Shown here one piece after another: positions 1 to 10,367 of a DNA stretch of 10,472 nt; the first letter of the stretch is position 1; the number at the start of each line of letters is the position of its first letter. The stretch is taken from positions 1 to 10,472 of the forward strand of contig JBHLLG010000099.1 of NCBI GenBank assembly GCA_048885925.1. Direction: 5' to 3'. The stretch is from Candidatus Hermodarchaeota archaeon (lineage in GTDB: Archaea > Asgardarchaeota > Lokiarchaeia > Sigyniarchaeales > SOKP01). The notes below the pieces were generated by a model. It searched no databases, had not been told where the DNA came from, and worked only from the letters and a program-made list of their open reading frames with translations. The position numbers and the translations under genes are program-made.

Positions 1-2
1 AT

Positions 3-386
3 TTAGTTAACAATTTATCTAATTATCTTGAACCTCTAGGACTCCAAGTTAGATTCAATCCATTGAATTCTTATTGGTATATTTCTTTCGATCCGGAAAC
101 AACAGAAATAATCTCAGCAAATCCGTTTGAAGGAAACCCCAGATTAGCCGCAACATTATATTGCACAATGATTTGTTGTTTTACTACTTCTGGACAAACT
201 ACAATTCAAAAAATAAAAGAAATTAGGAAAAAGAAGGGAGTTATTGAAGATATTAAAGAATTAGAAAAAATGGGATTTGTCATTCTTGATAAAAAATTAA
301 ATATAGTTAAATTAACTCCTTTAATTGGATATTTATTAGATCTGGAAAAACTTTTTTTAAAAATTGCTTTAAAATTGAAAAATTAG
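3..386 (+). CDS. Winged-helix protein resembling ScpB/KITE-family SMC accessory subunits; 5'-truncated by the window edge
   Basis: The frame of ORF 63..386 is open back to position 3 (LVNNLSNYLEPLGLQVRFNPLNSYWYISF...), so the TTG at 63 is probably internal. The segments 'YLEPLGLQV...WYI' and 'TTIQKIKEIRKKKGVIEDIKELEKMGFV...VKLTP' resemble the tandem winged-helix pattern of ScpB (IT..EI..IRG....I..L.E.GLI). Confidence 0.55.
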   Translation, partial: LVNNLSNYLEPLGLQVRFNPLNSYWYISFDPETTEIISANPFEGNPRLAATLYCTMICCFTTSGQTTIQKIKEIRKKKGVIEDIKELEKMGFVILDKKLNIVKLTPLIGYLLDLEKLFLKIALKLKN

Positions 387-551
387 GATCAAAATGCTAA
401 TTATCTTTTAATTAATAAAAAAATGATGGTTGATATTCTCACATATTAATTTTTATTATAAAAAAGTTTTTCTACATTATGAGAGCGTATTTTAATATAG
501 TGAATAAAATGGAATATGCTATTCTTGAAAGTACAAAGAGAAGAATAAGTA

Positions 552-1376
552 TTAAATAGGATTATTGATTTCTCCTTTTTTTTTTTTAATAAAAATTAGA
601 TAAATAAATATCAAACAAGCAATGCAAATTCCAACAATGCTTATAATTAATAATATGATATATAAAAAATCCCAACTGAATTGTATATATGATTTTCCAG
701 TTTGTTCTGAGTCTCCGATAGTTAATGTTGCCCAAGTATTCATGTCTAGGGGATCTGCATTTTTTGGGTAAGTATTATAAATCGGTACATTTGCATCAAA
801 AGGACCACCATATACAAAAAATCCAATTTGTTCTGTTTCATTTATTCCAAGAATAGAGAAAGGGATTTGCATTTCATAAATCTGATGGTTTTGGTTGGAA
901 TTAGGACTAACTGAATAGCTTGTATCTCCTTTTAATTTAGAGTCACAAATAAAAGAACAATGACTAACATATTCATGAGGAGTTCCTGTAATATTTAAAA
1001 TATAATGAGTACCTCCGCTAAACATTCCAGAATAATATGCAAAGCTATCCTCTTCCCCAGCGGACCAAACTTTATCATTATTGGTATCAAAATGTATCCT
1101 AAAAAAATCTCCATCATCTAAAGTCATATCTCCAATCGCATCTAAGCAAAGATAAATACAATCATTATCATTTTTAAAATATAAAAATGATACTTCATTA
1201 ATTTGAATCTTCGAAGCATCTGACCATTCAGAGTTATTAGTGAATATTCCATCTATAGAAACATCTTCTATCTTCCAACCACTATCTAATGAAAAAAATT
1301 GTGGTTCAGATAAATTAAGACCGATTATAGAAATAATAAGTAGACTTATGAAACCTATAAGACTAATAATTACCAT
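552..1376 (-). CDS. Secreted, C-terminally membrane-anchored DOMON-like/CBM9-like beta-sandwich protein (true start may be ATT at 1400)
   Basis: It has an N-terminal hydrophobic signal segment. The motifs 'IDG....SEWSDA', 'LYFKNDNDCIYL', 'D.FRIHFDTNND' and 'YEMQIPFSILG' are typical of DOMON-like/CBM9-like domains. It ends in a TM helix followed by KKKK. Confidence 0.75.
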   Translation of the reverse strand: MVIISLIGFISLLIISIIGLNLSEPQFFSLDSGWKIEDVSIDGIFTNNSEWSDASKIQINEVSFLYFKNDNDCIYLCLDAIGDMTLDDGDFFRIHFDTNNDKVWSAGEEDSFAYYSGMFSGGTHYILNITGTPHEYVSHCSFICDSKLKGDTSYSVSPNSNQNHQIYEMQIPFSILGINETEQIGFFVYGGPFDANVPIYNTYPKNADPLDMNTWATLTIGDSEQTGKSYIQFSWDFLYIILLIISIVGICIACLIFIYLIFIKKKKGEINNPI

Positions 1377-1450
1377 TGTTACTTTTTTTTTCTTTTTAAT
1401 TTATAACACCATTTTTATTGAGTTAATTCTAAAATAAACTTAAAAGTATT

Positions 1451-4400
1451 TTAAAAATGATACCAATGAAACCTACCATCTGCATGACGAACTAAAGTGA
1501 ATCCATCGGTTCTTGCGGCGATATACAGAATTTGCGTTGGATGAGTATCAAGAATGCAATAAAGTCCTAAATTATTACCAAAATTATAAAAATCAACTGT
1601 TCGATCTTCATAATAAACATTTCCAAAAAGATCCTTATAATAATCCCTAATAACACATGTATCCCACTCCCAATCATTTCCATTCCATGAGAATGCTGCT
1701 TTATCAAACACCCAATCATCAAAACTATTATCACCATTGGAATCTTCATTAATTATTGAGACATAACCAACATTATCCTCAGCAAGAAAACCTGCTTGCC
1801 AGGTATCTTTTGCTCCAGAATCAGCCTTGATATATCCCGGTCTTGAAAAAGGATCTTTTGCAGCTTGAAGAGAATACCAAGGACCATTTTGAGTAGGACC
1901 AACTAATGCATATTTTTTATCACCAACTCCCTGATAATCCATTCCTCCATCAGTATTAATGTGTACCGTTACCGCTTCTCTGGTTCTTGAATAAGGGTTA
2001 TCATTTTCCAAATAATTAATGAATTCCTGAATATTATCTGGATAAACAGGAAAATCCAAATCTAAAGGTATATAATAATAACAAGCCCCACTTATTCCAT
2101 CATCATAAAATTGATATTTAATTTGCAAAATAGCATCTACTCTTGGTCCCCATGTGTTACAAGTATCTCTCAATGTTACTCGTTGAGCAGGATATCCTAT
2201 TCCAAATATGTTATCATTCCAATAAGTATTTTCAGGATTTCTTAATCCATATGAATTGTCTCCAAAGGTTAATTTTGATTCATGTTCTTGTATGTATGCC
2301 TCATCACTTATATCTGGATCGTCATAAACATAAAAATGATAAGACAATGTTATTCCACATCCTATTTCAGGTGATAATGTAAAGAAAATATCTTCTTGAG
2401 TTTTGGTATCAAATTCTATTTCAGGGGCTTTTTCACCTTCGGTAACCATTCTTAAAGACGGTGTATCATAATCTGGAACATTATTTTGTCCAAATATAAT
2501 CAAAAGCCATCCAATTAATAATATAATTAATGAAATTGCAAAAATTGCTAATCCTACCCATACACTAATCGGATTAGTAGACAAGACTCCCGCTAGTATT
2601 AAACCAGAAATAACAATATCAATAACTGCCATCGTAATAGAAATTACAGAAGAGATTATAATTAATATAGCTCCTATTGAAATGGCAACCCCAGGCCAAT
2701 AAAATTCTCCCCCCAAACTCATCAATTCGATCCCTATATGATAGATTTCAACCGCCTCTATAATTGCATATGTTGAAGATATAATAGTTATGATGGACAT
2801 AATGATATTAAATATTTGAAGTCCTATTTGCAATTTCGTGAGTTTTTTTAAAGGTTGTTCTAACGTCTCATCAAGATCATATACTTGTTCCTCGGGAATG
2901 TCAATCCAATCTTGCTTAATTCTCCTTTCTTTATAAACCAAATTACCATTTGCATCAGTATGTCTAAAGTATTCAATAATTTGATATTGATCAGTATCAG
3001 GATTTACATATATCCTTGTTTCTATAACATCTATACCACCATCTGATGGAAAATTAGTTCTAGTTGCTCGATAACTCCATGTTCCATCAACTAGATCAAT
3101 AGTTGTTTTCGATTTTTTATTAAATATTAGAACCCATTCATCTAACTCATTTTTTTCAAAAACTGCTGTAACTGAAATTCTTTTGATTATATCTTCATCA
3201 GCAAGATTAAATCCATAAGATTTTCCAAAAGTAAACTTTTCTGCTAAAATAGCATTATTAATTTTTTTAACTCTTATACCAATAGTAGTTTTAAGAAGGT
3301 ATTTCATACTTTTATCAATTATTCTATTTAAAAATGCATCAGTAGAAATCGTCTTATTAAATTCAGTAACCAAAACAAAAAAATCTCCATCTACAAAATC
3401 AGAAATATTTTCAACTGTATTGAAAATTGCATTTTTTAATTGACCAGGTTTAACATCGTAAAAATATGCAATACCTCCATTTAGATATTCTGGTATATTA
3501 TTTATTTGATAATTTGTTTCATATCCCCATTGACTTTCAAAAATATAGCTTGCATATACATAATCTTGTTGATCACTTGAGGGAACTCGGAGTAGAGCAC
3601 CTCTTAGAGAAGAAAAGTGATATAAATTAAGACCTTGGATAATAAGATCATCTGGATGAGGCCAAATATGGAGCATTTGCTTTCCTCCAGTACAATTTGT
3701 TAAAAGCGCGCCCCAGACGAGATCAAATGTGAATTCTAAGGATTTATCGTCAAATGCTGGATGAATATTAGTCTCATTACTATAATAGGTAAAATATGTC
3801 TGATAGCTATATTCAGTTATATTAGTAAAAGGGGCTAATGCAATATAATTTGAACTGTTATCAGTTATGTCATTTGGTAAATAATCACCTTTCAACCCTT
3901 CATAAGTATATGGTCCGATAATTCTTAGTAAAGGGATGATGTCAATATAACCATCATCTATCCATGATAATCCTGTTCTTTCATATAAAGAATCGTCTAA
4001 TGGTCTTTGAATTTGGATATCAATTCTTAAGTTTTGAGTGATTAACTCTTCAGATAGGGTAAAAATATAATTATACAAGCTATTACCAGGTAAAATATCG
4101 TAATTCTTTTCCGAAATATCCAAACCATCAAATAACAAATCTGCGTCATAATCGGGATTATAAGGATCTAGATCTTGATTAATTTCATTTGAATCACATA
4201 ATCCATCTCCATCTGAATCTGAATAAAGATTATTTTCTACTATTATTGGCTTTATAAATCTCCCATTTTTATTCAAAATTATTTCAATATCAAAAAATCC
4301 ATCTCCTACTTGTTCGATAAAATCAAAATAAATTGTATAGGTCCCAGATTCTATATATTGTTCAAGTAAATAACTTCCTACTGATAGTATCTCATCATAG

Positions 4401-7387
4401 ATCTTTATATCGATTATTTTTATATCCTTAATATAATCATAGGCAGAAAGACTATTAATTTGTAAATATAATTCTGAATAATTAAAGGAAGAAGGGATTA
4501 CGAGCATTAATTTCCCAAGATACGAATATTTTAAATTATTTCCCGCTTGTTTTGATTCTGAAATACTAAATCTTTGATGAAGTGATTCCCAAAATATCCA
4601 ACAATTTTGTTGATAAATCGGGCTCTTTAATATTAATTCATTACCAGAACTGAGTTCATCTCCGTCGCAATCCACTTCACTAATTATGGTAACATTTTCA
4701 ATAATTAGATTAACACCCATGATTTTTAAAAAATGTGAACCACCTTCAAGAATAAAATCTAAGTTAAATTGAGGTTCACTATCATCTAAAGGAAGATTAT
4801 TACATAATAGATTGCCATCTAAAGATATCGTAATTGTATCTCCTTGACAATTGGAATGTAATTTTAAATAACCAGATCCTTTAAAACCAATCTCAAGTGT
4901 ATTTTGAGGATTTTTAAATTCTTGGTGAATCAAGCATAATTTTTGAATATATAAGGATTTAATCTTAAATCCATCAAAATAATCTAAGTATTGATTAACT
5001 TTAATTATTATTTCATGATATAGCGTAGTAAAATTAAAATAAAAATCTGTAAAATTTAAGTATGGATCTAAATTCCTAATTTCTTCCCCATCAATAAAAA
5101 TAATGCCTTCAAATGGCTCAACATCTTTAGTAATAATTGAAATAATAGATTCTCCAATAGCAATAAAATTATAACTAATTTCCAAATTTTCATGATTCAA
5201 CTCAACTTCACTCAAGGATTCAAATTGTATCATCCTATAACATGCAGCACGTAATATATTAATCCATAAATCAGTATCTATATTTAATAAACTTAGTAGT
5301 CCTATATCAAACGTAAAATAAATAGCTCTTCCAGAACCATAAAAGTTTAAGATAATTGATGGTAATTCCTCAGTTAAAACTAGATGCGCGAATTCTTCTG
5401 AAAGGTACGGATCAGGTACTTCAAAATCCTTATTTGAAGCTATAATGGGGGTTTTATTTGTAAAACTTAACCATTTCAATGAATTAATAGCTAATTGAAT
5501 CCATGCTGAGCTATTATAACCCCTAAATGCAGAACGCCCAATATCCATCGAAAAATAGACTCCTCGACCTTTTTCATAATTGGATGATATAATTGCGGGT
5601 TGATTTAAATCTAAAATTTCATCTTTACACCATAAAGGTCTATAATAATATGCTAATACCTCTGGAATTCCAATATTATTACAAAATTTTTGATTTAAAA
5701 ATGGATAAAAATTAATTTCAAAAGCCCAAGATTTTGACTTTAAGATGGCTCCTAAAAAAGCTTCTGTGATTGAATGATTATTACTTATTCCAATTTTATG
5801 ATACCAGTCCCATTCTATTCTTTTTTCACAATACCATGTAGTACCAGCAGAAATACAATCCCACTGGTGATCATGGTTAAACTCATCACAATCCAAATCA
5901 CATTCAATATCAAAAAATATAGGTGGAATTCCTCCTAGGCATTTTACTCCAAAAATGTCTGAAATTCCATTTTGATAATTATTTAATGACCAATCTGAAC
6001 ATATTATTTTTCCTCCCATTTTAACCCAATTATTAATAATTTGAGCACAAGTTTCATTAAAATCCATATAGAATTTAATAATTTCATTCAGCCAATCACA
6101 AAAAGATTTAAATGTTAGATTTACAGGAAAATCTATCCATCCAAAATTCATTAACCATAAAATATCATACTTACTATTGATAAGATTAGTTAAAAGATCC
6201 TGAATTTTGCTTACTATATTATAAGAACATCGTCCATCTAGAACTTCATTTATCAAAAATAAATCACTACTGTCGTCACACCATGCTAGTACATTAGCTA
6301 AACAAACCTCGATAGTAACAATAGGAGGCAAAATTAATTGTCCATAATAATTTAATAATGTTGTATCTGGATAAGCGTACTTTCTATCTCTATTATCAAA
6401 ATATTCTATTTTTGATAAAAGTTCAAATTCGTGAATAAAATCAACAGGTGGGGCTTTGCAATCATAATATAAGAGAAAACTCTGATCTGGTTCTAAATAT
6501 TCTATGGTCCAATTTACACCATCTTCTTTAGCAGTAAAATTCAAATTACTCCTTAATATTGAAAAACAATTTAAATATTCTTCAATTTTTATTTTGTATG
6601 CTGTTCCATTCCCAAGATTAGAAATCTCTAAAAAAATTCTGATATCATTACCACTACTGACTTCAGAAACGTTTGAATGCTTACTCATTCCAATCAAAGG
6701 AGGATTCCAAACACTATGTTTTGCTAAAACCATAGTGTCTGATGATGTTGTTATAGCGTATCCATCTCTTCCAATTTTAGAATTATTATTTAAATAGTGG
6801 CTAACTAAATAAAAATCGGAAGATATATACATATCTGGGAGGTAAGGGGTATAATGAAATTGTTCAATACCTACAATATCGCAAAGTTGGGGATTATAAT
6901 TTATTATATGATCGGAACAAATTAAAATTCCTCCACTTTTTACAAACTCAGATATCAATTTCAATTGGTTAGAATCAAATACTAGATTTTCGGAGTTATT
7001 TAATTCAAAATTCCTAAAACTAATTAATATTAATGCATCATATATTCTTAAACCCAATTCATAAAATAAATCCACTTGATTATTGACAATTGTAATTTCT
7101 GACGACCAATTAATTGCCAACTGTTCAATTATATATTCGTTTGATGGATTATCAACCCAAGCTAAAATATTTAATCCAATTATCTCAATTTTATTGGTAC
7201 CTAGATCCGAACTGAAATATTTCATCTCTGGATTTCTATTACTTTCTTCAAAATTGTCATCAACAACTTTTAATTGAGATTCGATAAAAATAGAACCGTA
7301 TAATTGGATTACACGGATATTGGCTATTAAGATTATAAAAATTAAAAGGTAAGATTGAATTCTTTTTAAATTATTAGATCCTCTCAT
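1451..7387 (-). CDS. Giant (1978 aa) secreted/surface multidomain protein: signal peptide, two GATase1-like domains plus a DUF11-like Ig domain, beta-sandwiches, DxDGDG Ca-binding motifs, internal hydrophobic helices, PLAT-like C-terminus
   Basis: This is a 5.9-kb uninterrupted ORF in AT-rich DNA with an ATG start, an upstream GAGG and an N-terminal basic plus hydrophobic segment. Duplicated motifs: NILAWVD/NVLAWCD, YDALIL/YDILWL, FVKSGGILICSD/WVKMGGKIICSD, YEKGRGVYFSMDIG/YGSGRAIYFTFDIG. Other motifs: DUF11-like 'SK...VSSGNDIRIFLEISNLGNGTAYKIKIEEYL...VNWTIEYLEPDQS' and DSDGDGLCDSNE. The CDS is secure but its function is uncertain. Confidence 0.9.
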   Translation of the reverse strand: MRGSNNLKRIQSYLLIFIILIANIRVIQLYGSIFIESQLKVVDDNFEESNRNPEMKYFSSDLGTNKIEIIGLNILAWVDNPSNEYIIEQLAINWSSEITIVNNQVDLFYELGLRIYDALILISFRNFELNNSENLVFDSNQLKLISEFVKSGGILICSDHIINYNPQLCDIVGIEQFHYTPYLPDMYISSDFYLVSHYLNNNSKIGRDGYAITTSSDTMVLAKHSVWNPPLIGMSKHSNVSEVSSGNDIRIFLEISNLGNGTAYKIKIEEYLNCFSILRSNLNFTAKEDGVNWTIEYLEPDQSFLLYYDCKAPPVDFIHEFELLSKIEYFDNRDRKYAYPDTTLLNYYGQLILPPIVTIEVCLANVLAWCDDSSDLFLINEVLDGRCSYNIVSKIQDLLTNLINSKYDILWLMNFGWIDFPVNLTFKSFCDWLNEIIKFYMDFNETCAQIINNWVKMGGKIICSDWSLNNYQNGISDIFGVKCLGGIPPIFFDIECDLDCDEFNHDHQWDCISAGTTWYCEKRIEWDWYHKIGISNNHSITEAFLGAILKSKSWAFEINFYPFLNQKFCNNIGIPEVLAYYYRPLWCKDEILDLNQPAIISSNYEKGRGVYFSMDIGRSAFRGYNSSAWIQLAINSLKWLSFTNKTPIIASNKDFEVPDPYLSEEFAHLVLTEELPSIILNFYGSGRAIYFTFDIGLLSLLNIDTDLWINILRAACYRMIQFESLSEVELNHENLEISYNFIAIGESIISIITKDVEPFEGIIFIDGEEIRNLDPYLNFTDFYFNFTTLYHEIIIKVNQYLDYFDGFKIKSLYIQKLCLIHQEFKNPQNTLEIGFKGSGYLKLHSNCQGDTITISLDGNLLCNNLPLDDSEPQFNLDFILEGGSHFLKIMGVNLIIENVTIISEVDCDGDELSSGNELILKSPIYQQNCWIFWESLHQRFSISESKQAGNNLKYSYLGKLMLVIPSSFNYSELYLQINSLSAYDYIKDIKIIDIKIYDEILSVGSYLLEQYIESGTYTIYFDFIEQVGDGFFDIEIILNKNGRFIKPIIVENNLYSDSDGDGLCDSNEINQDLDPYNPDYDADLLFDGLDISEKNYDILPGNSLYNYIFTLSEELITQNLRIDIQIQRPLDDSLYERTGLSWIDDGYIDIIPLLRIIGPYTYEGLKGDYLPNDITDNSSNYIALAPFTNITEYSYQTYFTYYSNETNIHPAFDDKSLEFTFDLVWGALLTNCTGGKQMLHIWPHPDDLIIQGLNLYHFSSLRGALLRVPSSDQQDYVYASYIFESQWGYETNYQINNIPEYLNGGIAYFYDVKPGQLKNAIFNTVENISDFVDGDFFVLVTEFNKTISTDAFLNRIIDKSMKYLLKTTIGIRVKKINNAILAEKFTFGKSYGFNLADEDIIKRISVTAVFEKNELDEWVLIFNKKSKTTIDLVDGTWSYRATRTNFPSDGGIDVIETRIYVNPDTDQYQIIEYFRHTDANGNLVYKERRIKQDWIDIPEEQVYDLDETLEQPLKKLTKLQIGLQIFNIIMSIITIISSTYAIIEAVEIYHIGIELMSLGGEFYWPGVAISIGAILIIISSVISITMAVIDIVISGLILAGVLSTNPISVWVGLAIFAISLIILLIGWLLIIFGQNNVPDYDTPSLRMVTEGEKAPEIEFDTKTQEDIFFTLSPEIGCGITLSYHFYVYDDPDISDEAYIQEHESKLTFGDNSYGLRNPENTYWNDNIFGIGYPAQRVTLRDTCNTWGPRVDAILQIKYQFYDDGISGACYYYIPLDLDFPVYPDNIQEFINYLENDNPYSRTREAVTVHINTDGGMDYQGVGDKKYALVGPTQNGPWYSLQAAKDPFSRPGYIKADSGAKDTWQAGFLAEDNVGYVSIINEDSNGDNSFDDWVFDKAAFSWNGNDWEWDTCVIRDYYKDLFGNVYYEDRTVDFYNFGNNLGLYCILDTHPTQILYIAARTDGFTLVRHADGRFHWYHF
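4117..4220 (-). repeat. Ca2+-binding acidic repeats (bacterial/archaeal TSP3-like DxDGDG) within the giant protein; a further degenerate copy at about 4637-4673
   Basis: The translation contains DSDGDGLCDSNEINQDLDPYNPDYDADLLFDGLD and DCDGDELSSGNE, matching the D.D.DGL.D..E.....DP...D.D.D consensus. Confidence 0.75.
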
Positions 7388-7451
7388 TTTAAATGAATGC
7401 CCTCTTATTTCAAAATATTTAGAAAAAATTAAGAAATAATTAAGATATATT

Positions 7452-7469
7452 TTTATATAAATCTTGTTA
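7452..7469 (-). promoter_or_regulatory. Putative archaeal TATA box with BRE-like element for the giant gene
   Basis: TTTATATAAA at 7452-7461 is a perfect palindrome. On the minus strand it is preceded by purine-rich AACAAGA and lies about 65 nt upstream of the ATG at 7387. The AT-rich background lowers its specificity. Confidence 0.5.
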
Positions 7470-7585
7470 AATATTAATTGGATCCGATAAGGTTTGTAAT
7501 GTTGATTATCATAAGGAAACCCTATAATTTTTAAGAAAAGAAGAAATCTGTATATTAGGAATATCTAATTATATATAATAGGATA

Positions 7586-8131
7586 ATGAGAAAGAAGAAA
7601 ATCAAGAGATTCGAAGTTATAAATGAATCTTCAATGGAATTGAAAATAAAGTTAAATCATCGAGAAAATGTTGGTATGTTTGTTTTTGTTATAATAGTAT
7701 TTTTAGGTACATATTTTTTTCTTCTTTTTGATATTTATTATTTCAACATAATTTTTCGAGATATTGATTCGACAATACTTCCAACTTTTTTATTTTCAAT
7801 TATAATGCTGCCTCTAACTAGTTTTTTTACTGTTCTACTTATAAGGAGTCTATTTTTTACAATTATTTTAAGAATTGATAAAGAAAAGAATCTTCTTTTT
7901 CTAATTTATAATTATATGGGTTATAAAAGAAGAAAAATCATTCGAATTAATGAAATTATAGAGATCTATATAAAAGAAAATAAAACGCATACTACTTATG
8001 GGCTTAAGATGTCTAATTTTACTTTAAATATTGACTTAACTAGTGGAAAAATTATTAGAGTAATTGGATCTTTAATCCCTACTGAATTAAGAAGACTTAA
8101 AAACTTAATAACTAAAAATATTAACCTTTAG
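7586..8131 (+). CDS. Membrane protein with 2 TM helices and a probable bacterial PH-like soluble C-terminal domain
   Basis: Two long hydrophobic stretches are followed by 'LRIDKEKNLL...KRRKIIRINEIIEIYI...LNIDLTSGKIIRV...ELRRLKNLI'. This beta-meander plus terminal helix pattern is typical of bPH-like domains. Confidence 0.7.
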   Translation: MRKKKIKRFEVINESSMELKIKLNHRENVGMFVFVIIVFLGTYFFLLFDIYYFNIIFRDIDSTILPTFLFSIIMLPLTSFFTVLLIRSLFFTIILRIDKEKNLLFLIYNYMGYKRRKIIRINEIIEIYIKENKTHTTYGLKMSNFTLNIDLTSGKIIRVIGSLIPTELRRLKNLITKNINL

Positions 8132-8134
8132 AAA

Positions 8135-8368
8135 TTGAAGACATACGTAAGAAATACCAAGAATAATTTAGATTTAATTATTATCTTTTTTTCTCTATTA
8201 TTTTCAATATTAGCGATAATAATGTTAGCGATTTTAATAAAAATGTATAATATGAATCCAACCACTCTAAATTCTATAGTTCCTTTTCTTGTATTATGCT
8301 TCATTCTATTACTTATTTCTTTCTTTTTAAGATATTTTGTTTATAAGCGAAAAAAAGCATCTTATTAG
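8135..8368 (+). CDS. Small 2-TM membrane protein, hypothetical
   Basis: The TTG start lies 3 nt after the previous stop. Two hydrophobic helices are flanked by basic termini (KRKK), consistent with the positive-inside rule. Confidence 0.65.
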   Translation: MKTYVRNTKNNLDLIIIFFSLLFSILAIIMLAILIKMYNMNPTTLNSIVPFLVLCFILLLISFFLRYFVYKRKKASY

Positions 8369-8915: not shown

Positions 8916-9551
8916 TCAATGTTTGGTTGTTATTTCTAAAATCATTTCAGCAACTCGGTCGTTATATGTTTCCACATCTTCAAAACCTTCAACAGTTTCG
9001 CCACATGTTATAAATACTTCATTTATTGCTATTTTTCTTTTGCTGAAAAAATCAGCTATTTTTACCTTCACATCTTCAAGTTTTTTCTCTTTATTACCTT
9101 CTACTAAATCAATTTTATTTATACATACATATATTTTATCGGGGAAGAACCTAACATCATTAAAAAATTCAAATTGAGGTTTTAGGTCCCTATCAAGCGA
9201 GAAAACAGCTATAATCTGTGTGGCGATACGAGAAATTGTTATGATGCCCATTTTCACTACGGCTCTAGCCCTATCACCTCCTGGAGCGAAAATTGTATGC
9301 GCTTTGTTACTAGAATCTTCCCGAAACACAATTCGGTTAGGGTGAATTGTCTTTGTTTCCTTTTCATCAAGTGCATCTTCTTTATCGCCACCAGGAACAG
9401 TTGCTTCTCCCGAGAAATCTGCCTTAACAACTGAGCATTTTATACCTCCTTTTACTTTCTCAATATCTCCTTTTTTTAGATATCTTACGAATAATCGAAG
9501 AATACTGGTTTTTCCAACACTAACATCACCTAGTAGACCTATGTTGACCAC
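8916..9551 (-). CDS. Atypical small GTPase (Ras-like superfamily, MglA/Arf/Rag-like)
   Basis: G1 is GDVSVGKTS, the putative G2 Thr lies in ETKTI, the G3 region is FAPGG (no Asp), G4 is NKID and the G5 region is ITCG. It has a GTG start with GGTGA upstream. Confidence 0.88.
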   Translation of the reverse strand: MVNIGLLGDVSVGKTSILRLFVRYLKKGDIEKVKGGIKCSVVKADFSGEATVPGGDKEDALDEKETKTIHPNRIVFREDSSNKAHTIFAPGGDRARAVVKMGIITISRIATQIIAVFSLDRDLKPQFEFFNDVRFFPDKIYVCINKIDLVEGNKEKKLEDVKVKIADFFSKRKIAINEVFITCGETVEGFEDVETYNDRVAEMILEITTKH

Positions 9552-9554
9552 TTT

Positions 9555-10367
9555 TTACGCTTCACCTTCTAATAATTTATTTAATAATAATTCATAATCA
9601 GGTATGAGAAATTGTTCAAGCAAAGCATTATTATGAGCGTGGATTAGTGCTATTAATATTTCTTTAACATTTTTTGCGCTTTTGGAGTATTTTATTAAAT
9701 TTTCTCCGGTTGGATCTTGATTAAAATCTCTTGCATGTTCCTCGAATCCAAATTTTGTAAGCTCTGGTAATGCATTAAAAAAGCCAAAAGCTGAATAACC
9801 TTGGTATTGGAAGAATACAAAGAATCTAGTTTTAATATTCTTAATAATTTGAGATAAATATGCTGATGGGTATATCTCTCCTAGCGTAAGTTCTTCATCT
9901 TGTTGAATTATAAAGTAGGGGGAGATTGGGGAAACTTGAGATCCATACATTTCTTTTGGAGGTATTGAAATAAAAGGTAACTTTTCTGAGACGATTGTCC
10001 AGAGGTCTTCTCTTTTTTTTTCTAATAATATCTCTTTTATTTCATCATAAGCAAAATAAAAATCGGATTGAAGCGCTAATAATGAGCTTAAATAGACAGA
10101 TATTGAAGCAAAAGTAGCCTCTAAAACAGGTCGTCTTCCTCCATTAGATTCTGAAGGTTTAACGGCACCTTTCCAAGCTCTTAATCCAGAATAGGCAAAA
10201 GATTTAACATCAAAAAAAGCTCCTGAAAGAAAAAGAAAAGAAGGAGGGTCGCCTTTTTCTCCAGTTAAAAATTCTATTGATTTTTCAATTAATACACTCT
10301 CAAGTAATTCATCATGAAATTTTGAGTGGACTATGGGCATTTGTAGCCAAGATTTTTTCTTTGCCAA
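9555..10367 (-). CDS. Hypothetical protein, possibly a divergent roadblock/longin (profilin-like fold) GTPase partner
   Basis: This 270-aa ORF has a TTG start with GGGAGTG upstream, and its stop lies 3 nt before the GTPase start. The apparent helix-beta-beta-helix(VLEATFASI)-beta-beta-beta-helix order resembles roadblock/MglB with insertions. The fold call is tentative. Confidence 0.7.
   Translation of the reverse strand: MAKKKSWLQMPIVHSKFHDELLESVLIEKSIEFLTGEKGDPPSFLFLSGAFFDVKSFAYSGLRAWKGAVKPSESNGGRRPVLEATFASISVYLSSLLALQSDFYFAYDEIKEILLEKKREDLWTIVSEKLPFISIPPKEMYGSQVSPISPYFIIQQDEELTLGEIYPSAYLSQIIKNIKTRFFVFFQYQGYSAFGFFNALPELTKFGFEEHARDFNQDPTGENLIKYSKSAKNVKEILIALIHAHNNALLEQFLIPDYELLLNKLLEGEA
9562..9569 (-). 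promoter_or_regulatory. Shine-Dalgarno-like site for the GTPase, embedded in the last codons of the upstream gene
   Basis: The minus strand reads GAAGGTGAAGCGTAAAAAGTG: GGTGA about 10 nt before the GTG start, with the upstream TAA in between. Confidence 0.6.

Follow-up and report, generated by a model that had tools for sequence, protein, structure and literature searches.

A candidate giant cell-surface protein with an internal hydrophobic block, encoded beside a small membrane partner in a strain-variable cassette of a Lokiarchaeia-type Asgard archaeon

The window, by which we mean the whole stretch of 10,472 nucleotides that was analysed, contains a single uninterrupted frame, P0001 (1451..7387, reverse strand; 1978 amino acids plus stop), whose product is best read as a giant membrane-anchored cell-surface protein of a Lokiarchaeia-type Asgard archaeon. 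All parts of the layout given in a preliminary description are present: an N-terminal signal or anchor, an acidic ectodomain of ~1480 residues, ~115 residues of hydrophobic helices and a 339-residue tail. We infer that the protein is a strain-variable surface adhesin or contact protein, anchored by an internal helical hairpin and acting with a type-I membrane protein encoded directly downstream; we give this reading, including its topology and its function in adhesion or contact, a probability of about 0.55. An adhesin for partner cells, one of several options raised earlier, is thus the one that we favour. The preliminary description had set its own view against that of an S-layer or adhesin family with an ordinary polytopic anchor: what we find comes close to an ordinary anchor, but no described S-layer or adhesin family was matched.

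P0001 is a real gene, and more than a chance reading frame. The orthologues P0002 (55% identity, 100% coverage) and P0013 (35% identity, full length) come from two other Asgard lineages and are colinear with P0001 end to end. A metagenome from a different study (X5) spans the gene with no indels, and the 16 variants listed within the gene from independent metagenomes comprise 10 synonymous and 6 non-synonymous changes and no indel; 225 more variants occur across the window beyond these 16. Sediment metagenomes from 8 studies carry the gene, and none of the 24 runs listed is an RNA data set with it. The family is very rare and restricted to Asgard archaea: a profile search of 1.84 billion representatives returned three real relatives. 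Where family members were compared, they had a colinear head, stalk, hydrophobic block and C-terminal domain (CTD), and a neighbouring gene for a type-I membrane protein of 270-280 residues. Searches of P0001 against Pfam, NCBIfam and PDB sequences gave nothing significant, with no family covering either its head or its tail, which bears out the earlier remark that this combination of domains belongs to no described family; a PADLOC search with P0001, P0013 and the partner protein reached no anti-phage defence family at E<=0.01. Related-locus searches of genome contigs with the giant protein or with the partner yielded nothing. We found no description of the giant-protein family in the literature on Asgard surface proteins and adhesins (CC-licensed PMC and bioRxiv), and it is absent among the matches listed from the Lokiarchaeum ossiferum literature on surface proteins and glycosylation. 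The initial proposal of an uncharacterised archaeal (Asgard) membrane-associated giant protein is one that we support.

The proposed anchor lies in the C-terminal third of the protein. Residues 1345-1517 (2837..3355, reverse strand) form a basic juxtamembrane region (K+R 15.0%, no sequon) that varies between lineages; comparison with the same region of P0013 gave a best E of 0.25 in a non-colinear alignment, which is no significant similarity. Three hydrophobic helices follow (residues 1518-1635; 2483..2836, reverse strand): H1 (about 1519-1558) is amphipathic, H2 (about 1563-1603; 36-41 residues long among relatives, 37-45% of them small) is rich in small residues, and H3 (about 1607-1634) is the most hydrophobic. 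The block is also drawn by AF2 as three helices (1518-1558, 1560-1598 and 1607-1633), with ten-residue pLDDT means of 68-83 over residues 1520-1599 and of 53-57 over the third helix. Membrane spanning is predicted for H2 and H3 in 4/4 relatives; their summed dG values are about +0.3 to -2.6 for H2 and -5.7 to -6.3 for H3 on a Hessa-type scale that, like the other hydrophobicity scales used here, is rough. H1 has 2-4 charged residues and a higher hydrophobic moment, and is marginal or not predicted to span: its value on this scale is +0.6 in P0001 (marginal), and spanning is not predicted in P0002 or P0003. By these predictions, only H2 and H3 are robustly transmembrane across all relatives.

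We calibrated residue composition on the same genome, using crude ORF classes: median K+R is 13.2% in 1590 ORFs without a hydrophobic segment versus 7.3% in 93 ORFs with an N-terminal one. By this measure the juxtamembrane region looks cytoplasmic, which counts against the hairpin model: its 15.0% K+R is reached by 2.2% of 173-residue windows in signal-bearing ORFs, compared with 26.7% in ORFs without a hydrophobic segment. Between this region and the preceding arm, neither P0001 nor P0002 has a hydrophobic segment. Lys residues directly precede H1; the positive-inside rule would put them in the cytoplasm.

The CTD (residues 1640-1978, 339 amino acids; 1454..2470, reverse strand) has no recognised fold and is the best conserved part of the protein, at 56-84% identity to P0002 in 50-residue windows and 66-84% from residue 1701 onwards. 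Its composition (D 11.2%, Y 8.6%, W 2.7%) is rich in Asp and aromatic residues, but not in Cys as an earlier account of the tail had it: there are five, only one of which is kept in 3/4 of the aligned relatives that cover the CTD, P0001 included. The calibrated K+R composition suggests that the CTD is probably outside the cell. Its K+R content of 7.1% is matched or undercut in 0.4% of the whole ORFs that lack a hydrophobic segment, and 339-residue windows are as K+R-poor as the CTD in 71% of cases from signal-bearing ORFs versus 0.6% from ORFs without a hydrophobic segment. Sequons were also considered as a marker of topology and set aside as too weak: the CTDs of P0013 and P0003 contain three each, but those of P0001 and P0002 none, where 2.2 and 2.8 would be expected (P 0.08 and 0.05, respectively). 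Such counts carry little weight, since according to the highlights of PMC11284389 a single protein was highly glycosylated in an Asgard archaeon in culture.

The fold of the CTD gave few leads. An AF2 model of residues 1500-1978 (3 sequences) has a mean pLDDT of 38.8, falling below 35 in the CTD, so the CTD model is unusable, and the protein language-model atlas gave no usable match to the same residues. There is no Pfam match to the CTD, nor did we find internal repeats in it. The lipid-binding tip of the preliminary description finds no support: PLAT/LH2 (PF01477) gave no match at E<=10 in a six-frame search of the genome and none by hmmscan at E<=1. A resemblance to PLAT around residues 1880-1910 was judged by eye only. 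A CARDB-like first half of the CTD was another candidate; it was rejected, as hhalign against the CARDB region of P0001 itself returned a probability of 0.1%.

We hypothesize that the N-terminal signal or anchor would start Sec-type export of the 1480-residue acidic arm, that H2 would stop transfer and that H3 would re-start export, now of the 339-residue CTD, with H1 probably at the membrane interface. This stop and re-start would leave an internal helical hairpin in the producer's own membrane and both large parts outside. The arm would consist of a head, comprising two nested α/β units and a CARDB Ig-like insert, and a β-sandwich stalk stiffened by a TSP3-type calcium site. The CTD and the partner's ectodomain would build a membrane-proximal base, and the variable head would bind an external target: a partner cell, a polymer or a surface. 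That the two genes constitute a strain-variable accessory cassette would be usual for exposed surface proteins. Counting against an adhesin are the lack of any family match to head and CTD, the lack of a known adhesin head, and the low confidence of the fold models.

Alternatively, all three helices may span the membrane, in which case the CTD would be cytoplasmic and the protein might be a signal-transducing surface receptor whose CTD relays what the arm senses. We consider this unlikely, though several features are consistent with it: the three long helices in the AF2 model, the Lys residues just ahead of H1, an H1 that in P0001 is marginally hydrophobic enough to span, the absence of sequons from the P0001 and P0002 CTDs, and a level of CTD conservation that would be expected of a domain docking on conserved machinery. 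However, few ORFs that lack a hydrophobic segment are as low in K+R as the CTD, the predictions for P0002 and P0003 do not have H1 spanning, sequons do occur in the CTDs of P0013 and P0003, and Pfam and NCBIfam detected no signalling domains. Moreover, with three spanning helices the positive-inside rule would also put the K-rich side of H1 outside. Polycystin-1 and the adhesion receptors combine a giant modular ectodomain with a polytopic block that has a conserved membrane-proximal domain, and they would be a working analogy for P0001 if its CTD were cytoplasmic; P0001 differs in that no PLAT (E<=10), GAIN/GPS, channel or 7TM domain was detected in it, and in having two or three helices only.

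In the favoured reading, the hairpin-anchored adhesin would act with a second component, the product of the partner gene (552..1376, reverse strand). This 274-residue type-I membrane protein begins with a hydrophobic segment and continues with a ~210-residue ectodomain that matches no known family; a TM helix and a KKKK tail form its C-terminal end. Its homologues (53-78% identity) adjoin giant-gene homologues in other MAGs, and the giant gene is paired with the partner gene in at least two other lineages. P0033 (partner) and P0002 (giant) have consecutive accessions and contigs both of 67,885 bases; the locus tags of P0032 (partner) and P0019 (the tail fragment of one giant homologue) are likewise consecutive, and their contigs both measure 9201 bases. 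For P0027 and P0021, the sign of adjacency is an equal length of the longest listed contig, 2389 bases in both cases. We infer that the giant protein and its partner form a physical complex; a complex prediction for the CTD and the partner ectodomain scored 0.00 without control runs, and counts neither way.

At the opposite end of the protein, residues 1-35 (7283..7387, reverse strand) resemble a signal peptide or anchor: a K/R-rich start precedes a hydrophobic segment at residues 13-35, a pattern that is repeated in P0002, P0013 and the partial relatives L029 and L030. The arm that follows (residues 36-1344) is acidic (net charge -102, K+R 6.2%) and contains 21 N-X-S/T sequons where shuffling predicts 12.5 (P for >=21 = 0.006). 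Its head contains a duplication. The first half of α/β unit 1 (residues 67-178; 6854..7189, reverse strand) is duplicated in residues 359-485 (hhalign probability 98%, E 3e-14), which lie within α/β unit 2 (residues 355-640; 5468..6325, reverse strand), a unit that carries a Trp/Cys-rich insertion. Residues 666-715 (5243..5392, reverse strand) in turn duplicate the C-terminal strands of unit 2, residues 587-636 (hhalign probability 95.5%, E 1.6e-8), and probably complete unit 1; unit 2 and the CARDB insert would then be nested inside unit 1. The most conserved motifs of the head sit in unit 2 (WLMNFGWIDF, GGKII.SDW, EWDWYH, KSKSWAF). WLMNFGWIDF, EWDWYH, KSKSWAF and G.G.YFS.DIG are invariant across three orthologues whose overall identity is 35-55%.

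The putative CARDB/DUF11-type Ig-like insert (residues 226-320; 6428..6712, reverse strand) was assigned through the aligned stretch of P0013, residues 224-313 of which exceed the Pfam cut-offs for DUF11 (PF01345; 29.3 versus 24.6 bits) and CARDB (PF07705; 24.3 versus 22.7 bits). The corresponding score in P0002 is 17.4 bits, under threshold, and P0001 itself has no match at E<=1, but its residues 226-320 align to the orthologues with many invariant columns. The insert is missing from the relative L030. In the protein language-model atlas, residues 40-740 gave leads below 0.9 only, to CARDB, DUF11 and Ig-like surface proteins. The β-rich stalk (residues 735-1050; 4238..5185, reverse strand) appears to consist of jelly-roll or Ig-like sandwiches, and AF2 places β-sandwich modules there in a model of residues 321-1520 (14 sequences) with a mean pLDDT of 43.9. 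The DUF11/CARDB score of P0013, the TSP3-type motif described below, these β-sandwiches and the excess of sequons in the arm all speak for extracellular modules. Foldseek and VIA searches with this model returned generic β-sandwich and flavodoxin-like matches only, at noise level.

Trp-rich and strongly conserved, the α/β head could be catalytic or carbohydrate-binding, with the rest of the protein serving as spacer and anchor for a surface-tethered enzyme or polymer binder. The invariance of the head motifs in three orthologues would suit such a role, as would a weak match of the head to the GH42 β-galactosidase trimerisation domain, which has a GATase1-like fold (E 0.12), and matches of the stalk model to jelly-roll and CBM35-like domains. 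We nevertheless think it improbable, since the GH42 and CBM35-like matches are all at noise level, no catalytic family was detected, and catalytic residues are not assignable without a fold.

Beyond the stalk, residues 1057-1095 (4103..4219, reverse strand) contain putative TSP3-type acidic calcium-binding motifs, which we recognized by regular expression and by subthreshold model matches. There is a single canonical D.D.DG..D motif, at residue 1057, and three looser D.D.D motifs at 497, 906 and 1079; the Ca2+ repeats of the preliminary description thus shrink to one canonical TSP3-type motif, with no GGxGxD nonapeptide and no RTX array. The NCBIfam CglD model matches this stretch at E 6.3e-4, far under its cut-off; P0002 reaches E 0.0033 against TSP3_bac (PF18884; 17.7 bits versus a cut-off of 25), and P0001 has no Pfam match at E<=1. 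Matches of ~40 residues to the TSP3 stretch occur in many Asgard genomes. Next comes a conserved β-rich middle module (residues 1100-1350; 3338..4090, reverse strand), for which AF2 block means of pLDDT are 39-79. Residues ~870-1350 are matched at 28-32% identity in 6/52 genomes of the same genus, in G264 (same family) and in G127 (same class), mostly in open frames of 1605-4063 residues, with one of 666. The same-genus giant ORFs (L003-L006, L009 and L010) and those of more distant genomes (L007, L008 and L011) have the TSP3 stretch and the middle module in common with P0001; with the queries used, they do not match its head, hydrophobic block or CTD.

This arrangement invites comparison with giants that combine CARDB/DUF11 and TSP3 modules. 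The 'Dockerin-type' giants of Omnitrophota (bioRxiv 10.1101/2023.11.21.568195) are surface proteins of this kind, and these together with Myxococcus CglD and MtsD have the same long extracellular Ig-like or β-sandwich N-terminal region, the same TSP3-type calcium sites, TM segments only near the C-terminal end and, likewise, a proposed role in attachment. P0001 is distinguished by one canonical TSP3 motif in place of an array, by a head and a 339-residue tail that match no family, by an internal helical block as anchor, after which comes another large domain that is probably extracellular, and by its small, conserved partner gene. P0001 scores far under the cut-offs of the CglD and MtsD models (17.6 versus 400 bits).

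The preliminary description had likened the protein to toxins and fusogens, an analogy that our results do not support. RTX toxins, colicin-type pore formers and large clostridial toxins are likewise large and multi-domain, with acidic calcium-type motifs and an internal hydrophobic stretch, but P0001 matches none of their domains: neither GG.G.D nor G.G.D occurs in P0001 by regular expression, HemolysinCabind gave no match at E<=1, and no pore-forming, colicin-like or glucosyltransferase toxin family was matched. RTX toxins carry a C-terminal T1SS signal, whereas that of P0001 is N-terminal and of Sec type; the window holds no type I secretion genes or acyltransferase. Foldseek searches with the AF2 model did list Cry protoxins, which we reject given TM-scores of 0.07-0.08 (rmsd > 30 Å) on a low-confidence model (pLDDT 44); they reflect stacked β-sandwiches alone. 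Colicin-, diphtheria-T- and Cry-type pore formers have no sequence match. Class II fusogens of the Fsx1/HAP2 type have a signal peptide, a β-rich ectodomain and several C-terminal TM helices, and in archaea are encoded by accessory genes, in all of which they are like P0001; P0001 differs in being ~3x longer and in having a large conserved domain after the helices. Class II fusogen chains are absent among the Foldseek and VIA matches listed, though the confidence of the model is too low for this to count against such a fold.

We consider it very unlikely that the protein is a weapon or fusogen (a pore former, contact-dependent effector or cell-fusion protein) whose arm would attach to an adjacent cell so that the hairpin, the CTD or both could enter or disturb the target membrane. 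The N-out/C-out hairpin would also be the topology of toxin hairpins that enter a membrane from outside, as those of colicin and diphtheria-toxin T domains do; the length of H2 and its wealth of small residues would fit, weapons often reside in strain-variable cassettes, and a CTD without a known fold could have an activity. On the other side, similarity to toxin, pore-forming or fusogen families is lacking in Pfam, NCBIfam, PADLOC and PDB sequences, RTX repeats are absent, and the Foldseek matches to Cry and CDTb have TM-scores of 0.07 on a low-confidence model. The internal bundle, once thought toxin-like, includes two strongly hydrophobic helices, such as become integrated in the course of translocation, and is not a soluble amphipathic bundle: H2 and H3 are constitutively membrane-like, too hydrophobic to stay soluble, and there are no amphipathic helices to shield them. 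The vicinity has no secretion system, nor any gene recognisable as conferring immunity; next to the giant gene is that of the conserved type-I membrane protein, whose ectodomain is large.

Another key observation is that the giant gene and its partner form an accessory block of ~7 kb (390..7556) that varies between strains within natural populations. In the closest related genome, G223, the flanking genes are 69 bp apart at the same site. Some metagenome contigs of the same population also lack the cassette: in X11 a contig runs from 588 directly to 7457 (its shorter side measures 138 bases), and in X6 one runs from 383 to 7502. In X6, depth is 11-55 in bins outside the cassette, compared with 0-2.5 in all giant-gene bins but one. 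In the X11 deletion the final 12 partner codons survive, a remnant more in keeping with loss of the cassette than with its insertion. The N-terminal module was found in none of 133 other genomes of the same family, and the partner in one of the 133, weakly. Other ORFs of the window encode small membrane proteins, a GTPase-like protein and proteins of unknown function. The presence or absence of a 7-kb two-gene block between conserved flanks, and its patchy spread across Asgard lineages, might suggest that a mobile element or virus carries it as cargo, perhaps to change virus adsorption through a surface protein, but this is very improbable: the cassette lacks an integrase, a tRNA target and, at its borders, any convincing terminal repeats or target-site duplication (AT-rich chance matches only), GC and tetranucleotide composition of the contig is typical of the genome with no sign of foreign origin, pattern scans of IMG/VR viral contigs gave no relative of either protein, and the partner remnant in X11 speaks for loss.

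Cultured Asgard archaea live attached to syntrophic partners; to our knowledge, they show no regular S-layer, and we know of little that has been established about Asgard surface and contact proteins. Anchoring by an internal helical hairpin, which would probably leave the large domains on one side of the membrane, would be unusual, and the family joins to it a strongly conserved tail domain without a recognised fold, a conserved partner, and presence or absence at the level of strains. It is a long shot that the arm grips a partner cell and that the hairpin, rich in small residues, the CTD and the partner protein then engage or remodel the apposed membrane by trans-insertion, tethering or fusion, as an Asgard-specific cell-contact machine; if true, this would be an activity long sought in the archaeal relatives of eukaryotes. 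Any action of the tail or hairpin on other membranes would, if it occurred, make the importance much higher. As they stand, the giant protein and its partner are a candidate pair for Asgard cell-surface biology and strain-level ecology.

The window is one entire contig of 10,472 bases, and the completeness of its source genome is 95%. The giant ORF (P0001; window 1451-7387, minus strand) runs uninterrupted for 1978 codons and is a genuine gene from a very rare family. When 5.8 billion clusters were searched with a word index, the sole matches were P0001 itself and P0002, a 1977-aa protein from a Thorarchaeota MAG that is 55% identical over 100% of its length and that NCBI names 'thrombospondin type 3 repeat-containing protein'. 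A profile built from the C-terminal 479 residues of P0001 and run against all 1.84 billion representatives gave five matches at E<=0.001, three of them genuine (P0003, P0004 and P0005); the other two were discarded as repetitive proteins. A member of the P0005 cluster, P0013 (1964 aa, Helarchaeota MAG), is colinear with P0001 from the signal to the last residue at 35% identity. The relatives carry the lineage labels Thorarchaeota, Helarchaeota and Promethearchaeota, and further N-terminal parts lie in two metagenome contigs, L029 and L030. Among 399 Asgard genomes, the hydrophobic block plus tail was found in G175 alone (35% identity, E 1.6e-31; contig cut at its 5' end), and the head had no match in any other genome of this set. 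Wider relatives exist solely for residues 870-1350 (the TSP3 stretch and a beta-rich module): at 28-32% identity, this part is found again in further giant ORFs of 6/52 same-genus genomes and two more distant ones. In run X5, from another study, two contigs span 391-7958 and show 53 differences, none of them an indel; the best-supported 16 variants within the giant gene (225 more across the window are not among them) comprise 10 synonymous and 6 non-synonymous changes.

Two of these relatives have local peculiarities. On the G175 contig (L002, G175:C126, 1-1674), some 130 aa of strongly basic, apparently helical sequence (net charge +20) precede the hydrophobic block, unlike in P0001, and a SAM-methyltransferase-like ORF lies downstream where the partner gene would be; the cut contig does not cover the N-terminus. 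In one Helarchaeota MAG, the P0005-cluster orthologue occupies adjacent ORFs, P0009 (430 aa) and P0005 (967 aa), whose locus tags follow directly on each other on one contig; in another MAG it is a single 1964-aa ORF. A frameshift, a pseudogene or a misassembly could account for the split. The MAG with the split also has a second, closer paralogue tail fragment, P0019, adjoining a partner homologue.

The layout that the preliminary description claimed is present in P0001: a K/R-rich start and then a hydrophobic segment (residues 13-35), a long acidic ectodomain-like region (residues 36-1344; net charge -102, 25 Cys), a hydrophobic block (residues 1518-1635) and a 339-aa tail (Asp 11.2%, Tyr 8.6%, Trp 2.7%). 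N-X-S/T sequons are enriched in residues 36-1344 (21 versus 12.5 expected, P 0.006). The tail is the best conserved part: in 50-residue windows it is 66-84% identical to P0002 from residue 1701 onward, compared with 32-58% across the first 600 residues. It had been called Cys-rich, a label that we withdraw: it holds five Cys, of which one is kept beyond the closest orthologue, in 3/4 aligned relatives (P0001 counted). No internal repeats were found in the tail, and AF2 gave no usable model of it (pLDDT below 35).

AF2 renders the hydrophobic block as three helices, H1-H3. A rough Hessa-type scale predicts a membrane span for both H2 and H3 in each of the four relatives; the value for H1 is borderline in P0001 (+0.6) and P0013 (-0.2), and in P0002 and P0003 no span is predicted for it. 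H1 carries 2-4 charged residues and the highest hydrophobic moment of the helices. We calibrated K+R content on ORFs of the source genome: the median is 13.2% in ORFs without a hydrophobic segment (n=1590) versus 7.3% in those with an N-terminal one (n=93), and the arm and tail of P0001 have 6.2% and 7.1%. Windows of 339 aa as K+R-poor as the tail make up 71% in signal-bearing ORFs versus 0.6% in ORFs without a hydrophobic segment. By this measure the tail appears to lie outside the cell, and the chain must then cross the membrane an even number of times; the simplest such topology would be a hairpin of H2 and H3, with H1 lying at the membrane interface. One region does not fit the hairpin model: the 173 residues preceding H1 have 15.0% K+R, a level reached by 2.2% of windows in signal-bearing ORFs versus 26.7% in ORFs without a hydrophobic segment, and nothing hydrophobic separates them from the arm in P0001 or P0002. 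The pre-H1 region of P0013 has no detectable homology to that of P0001 (the best BLASTP match, at E 0.25, is not colinear) and is more basic (+13). An extra hydrophobic segment (1313-1331) lies ahead of it, and the H1 that comes after it is more hydrophobic. Judged by these segments, P0013 may make four passes with a cytoplasmic loop, its tail again outside. A receptor with a cytoplasmic tail, against which the low K+R content of the tail counts, is unlikely.

Neither Pfam nor NCBIfam gave a significant match to P0001, and a search of PDB sequences with it found none. In P0013, the stretch aligned to positions 226-320 of P0001 exceeds the Pfam thresholds of both DUF11 and CARDB, and this P0013 stretch is thus an Ig-like domain of cell-surface type. 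Profile-profile comparison revealed a duplication in the head (residues 67-178 versus 359-485; probability 98%, E 3e-14) and a second duplicated pair (residues 587-636 versus 666-715; probability 95.5%, E 1.6e-8). We infer a head of two alpha/beta units, in which unit 2 and the CARDB insert would be nested within unit 1. A tethered enzyme or polymer binder seems quite improbable. In L030 (737-2146, plus strand), unit 1 runs directly into unit 2 without the ~130-aa CARDB/DUF11 insert, so the Ig-like insert is optional in the family. The AF2 model of the stalk (14-row alignment) has a mean pLDDT of 43.9, with block means of 52-79 only in beta-sandwich stretches (831-900, 951-1050 and parts of 1100-1260). 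Cry protoxins and GH2 enzymes were rejected as Foldseek relatives: TM-scores of 0.06-0.09 signify merely 'several stacked beta-sandwiches'.

The preliminary description had read the layout as toxin- or fusogen-like, with Ca2+ repeats and a lipid-binding tip. Of the repeats, a single canonical TSP3-type motif remains (D.D.DG..D at 1057), along with three D.D.D motifs of looser form; RTX-type GGxGxD is absent. The lipid-binding tip is not borne out, a PLAT profile having no match at E<=10, and a weapon or fusogen is very improbable. The accompanying claim, that the domain combination lies outside described families, holds: P0001 could be assigned to no named family tested, and we regard it as a member of none. 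Only the CARDB/DUF11 insert gave a match above a family cut-off, and in an orthologue (P0013).

The partner gene (552-1376, minus strand) lies 74 bases downstream of the giant gene and encodes a 274-aa protein with an N-terminal hydrophobic segment, a ~210-aa ectodomain, a C-terminal TM helix and a KKKK tail; no family matched. Its homologues are 53-78% identical (BLASTP), an alignment of eight sequences has 82 invariant columns, and several homologues adjoin giant-gene homologues: P0033 and the giant P0002 have consecutive accession numbers and contigs of 67,885 bases; P0032 and the giant tail fragment P0019 have consecutive locus tags and contigs of 9201 bases; for P0027 and the giant-gene homologue P0021 alike, 2389 bases is given as the length of the longest contig. 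Pattern scans found neither protein in other species-representative genomes.

The two-gene cassette is conserved and strain-variable. In G223, of the same genus, the left (window 1-389) and right (7557-8160) flanks, each 83% identical, lie 69 bp apart. One contig of run X11 joins 588 to 7457, and other X11 contigs cover the giant gene; since this junction retains the partner gene's final 12 codons, the X11 allele looks like a deletion. A contig of run X6 joins 383 to 7502, and X6 depth is 11-55 in bins beyond the cassette versus 0-2.5 in all but one giant-gene bin. DNA of the window was detected in 20 runs, which belong to 8 sediment and soil studies. Such polymorphism might also mark mobile-element cargo, which is most improbable: we found no integrase and no convincing repeats at the cassette, GC is 28.0% (genome value 29.0%), and the tetranucleotide distance falls at the 71st percentile of genome windows.

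The flanks have features of their own. Divergent from the giant gene, a 181-aa small membrane protein (7586-8131, plus strand) also adjoins it in the P0002-like contig L029 (476-1025, minus strand), there split by an X; it is 75% identical in G223 (G223:C4:114171-114710), where the cassette is absent, and is rare in the genus (matches in 5/52 other genomes). The left-flank ORF (3-386, plus strand; 127 aa, truncated at the contig end) matches no Pfam family significantly and is conserved in 48/52 other same-genus genomes at 49-91% identity. A 211-aa small-GTPase-like ORF (8916-9551, minus strand; GTP_EFTU at a sub-threshold E of 3.4e-4; TIGR00231 small_GTP at 21.3 bits, cut-off 42.5) follows, after a gap of 3 bases, a 270-aa ORF without a family (9555-10367, minus strand); the pair may be an Asgard GTPase with its partner gene. 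Between them, at 9552, one base is missing in contigs of 3/4 runs (X5, X8 and X11).

The giant protein resembles giant surface proteins with TSP3 and Ig modules described in bacteria. It shares TM segments only at the C-terminal end with Dockerin-type giant proteins of Omnitrophota, for which attachment to other cells has been proposed (10.1101/2023.11.21.568195). A search of CC-licensed PMC papers and bioRxiv found no description of the giant-protein family. What is new is the putative head of nested alpha/beta units, the placing of a large, conserved and probably extracellular tail after the helical block, the conserved small partner gene and the presence/absence polymorphism.

We favour, at a probability of roughly 0.55, a large surface protein anchored in the cell's own membrane for attachment or cell contact; the evidence for anchoring and surface exposure is much stronger than that for a role in adhesion. 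A variable binding head would sit on a calcium-stiffened stalk, and the tail and partner protein would form a conserved membrane-proximal base. Exposed surface proteins are often kept or lost between strains, as this cassette is.
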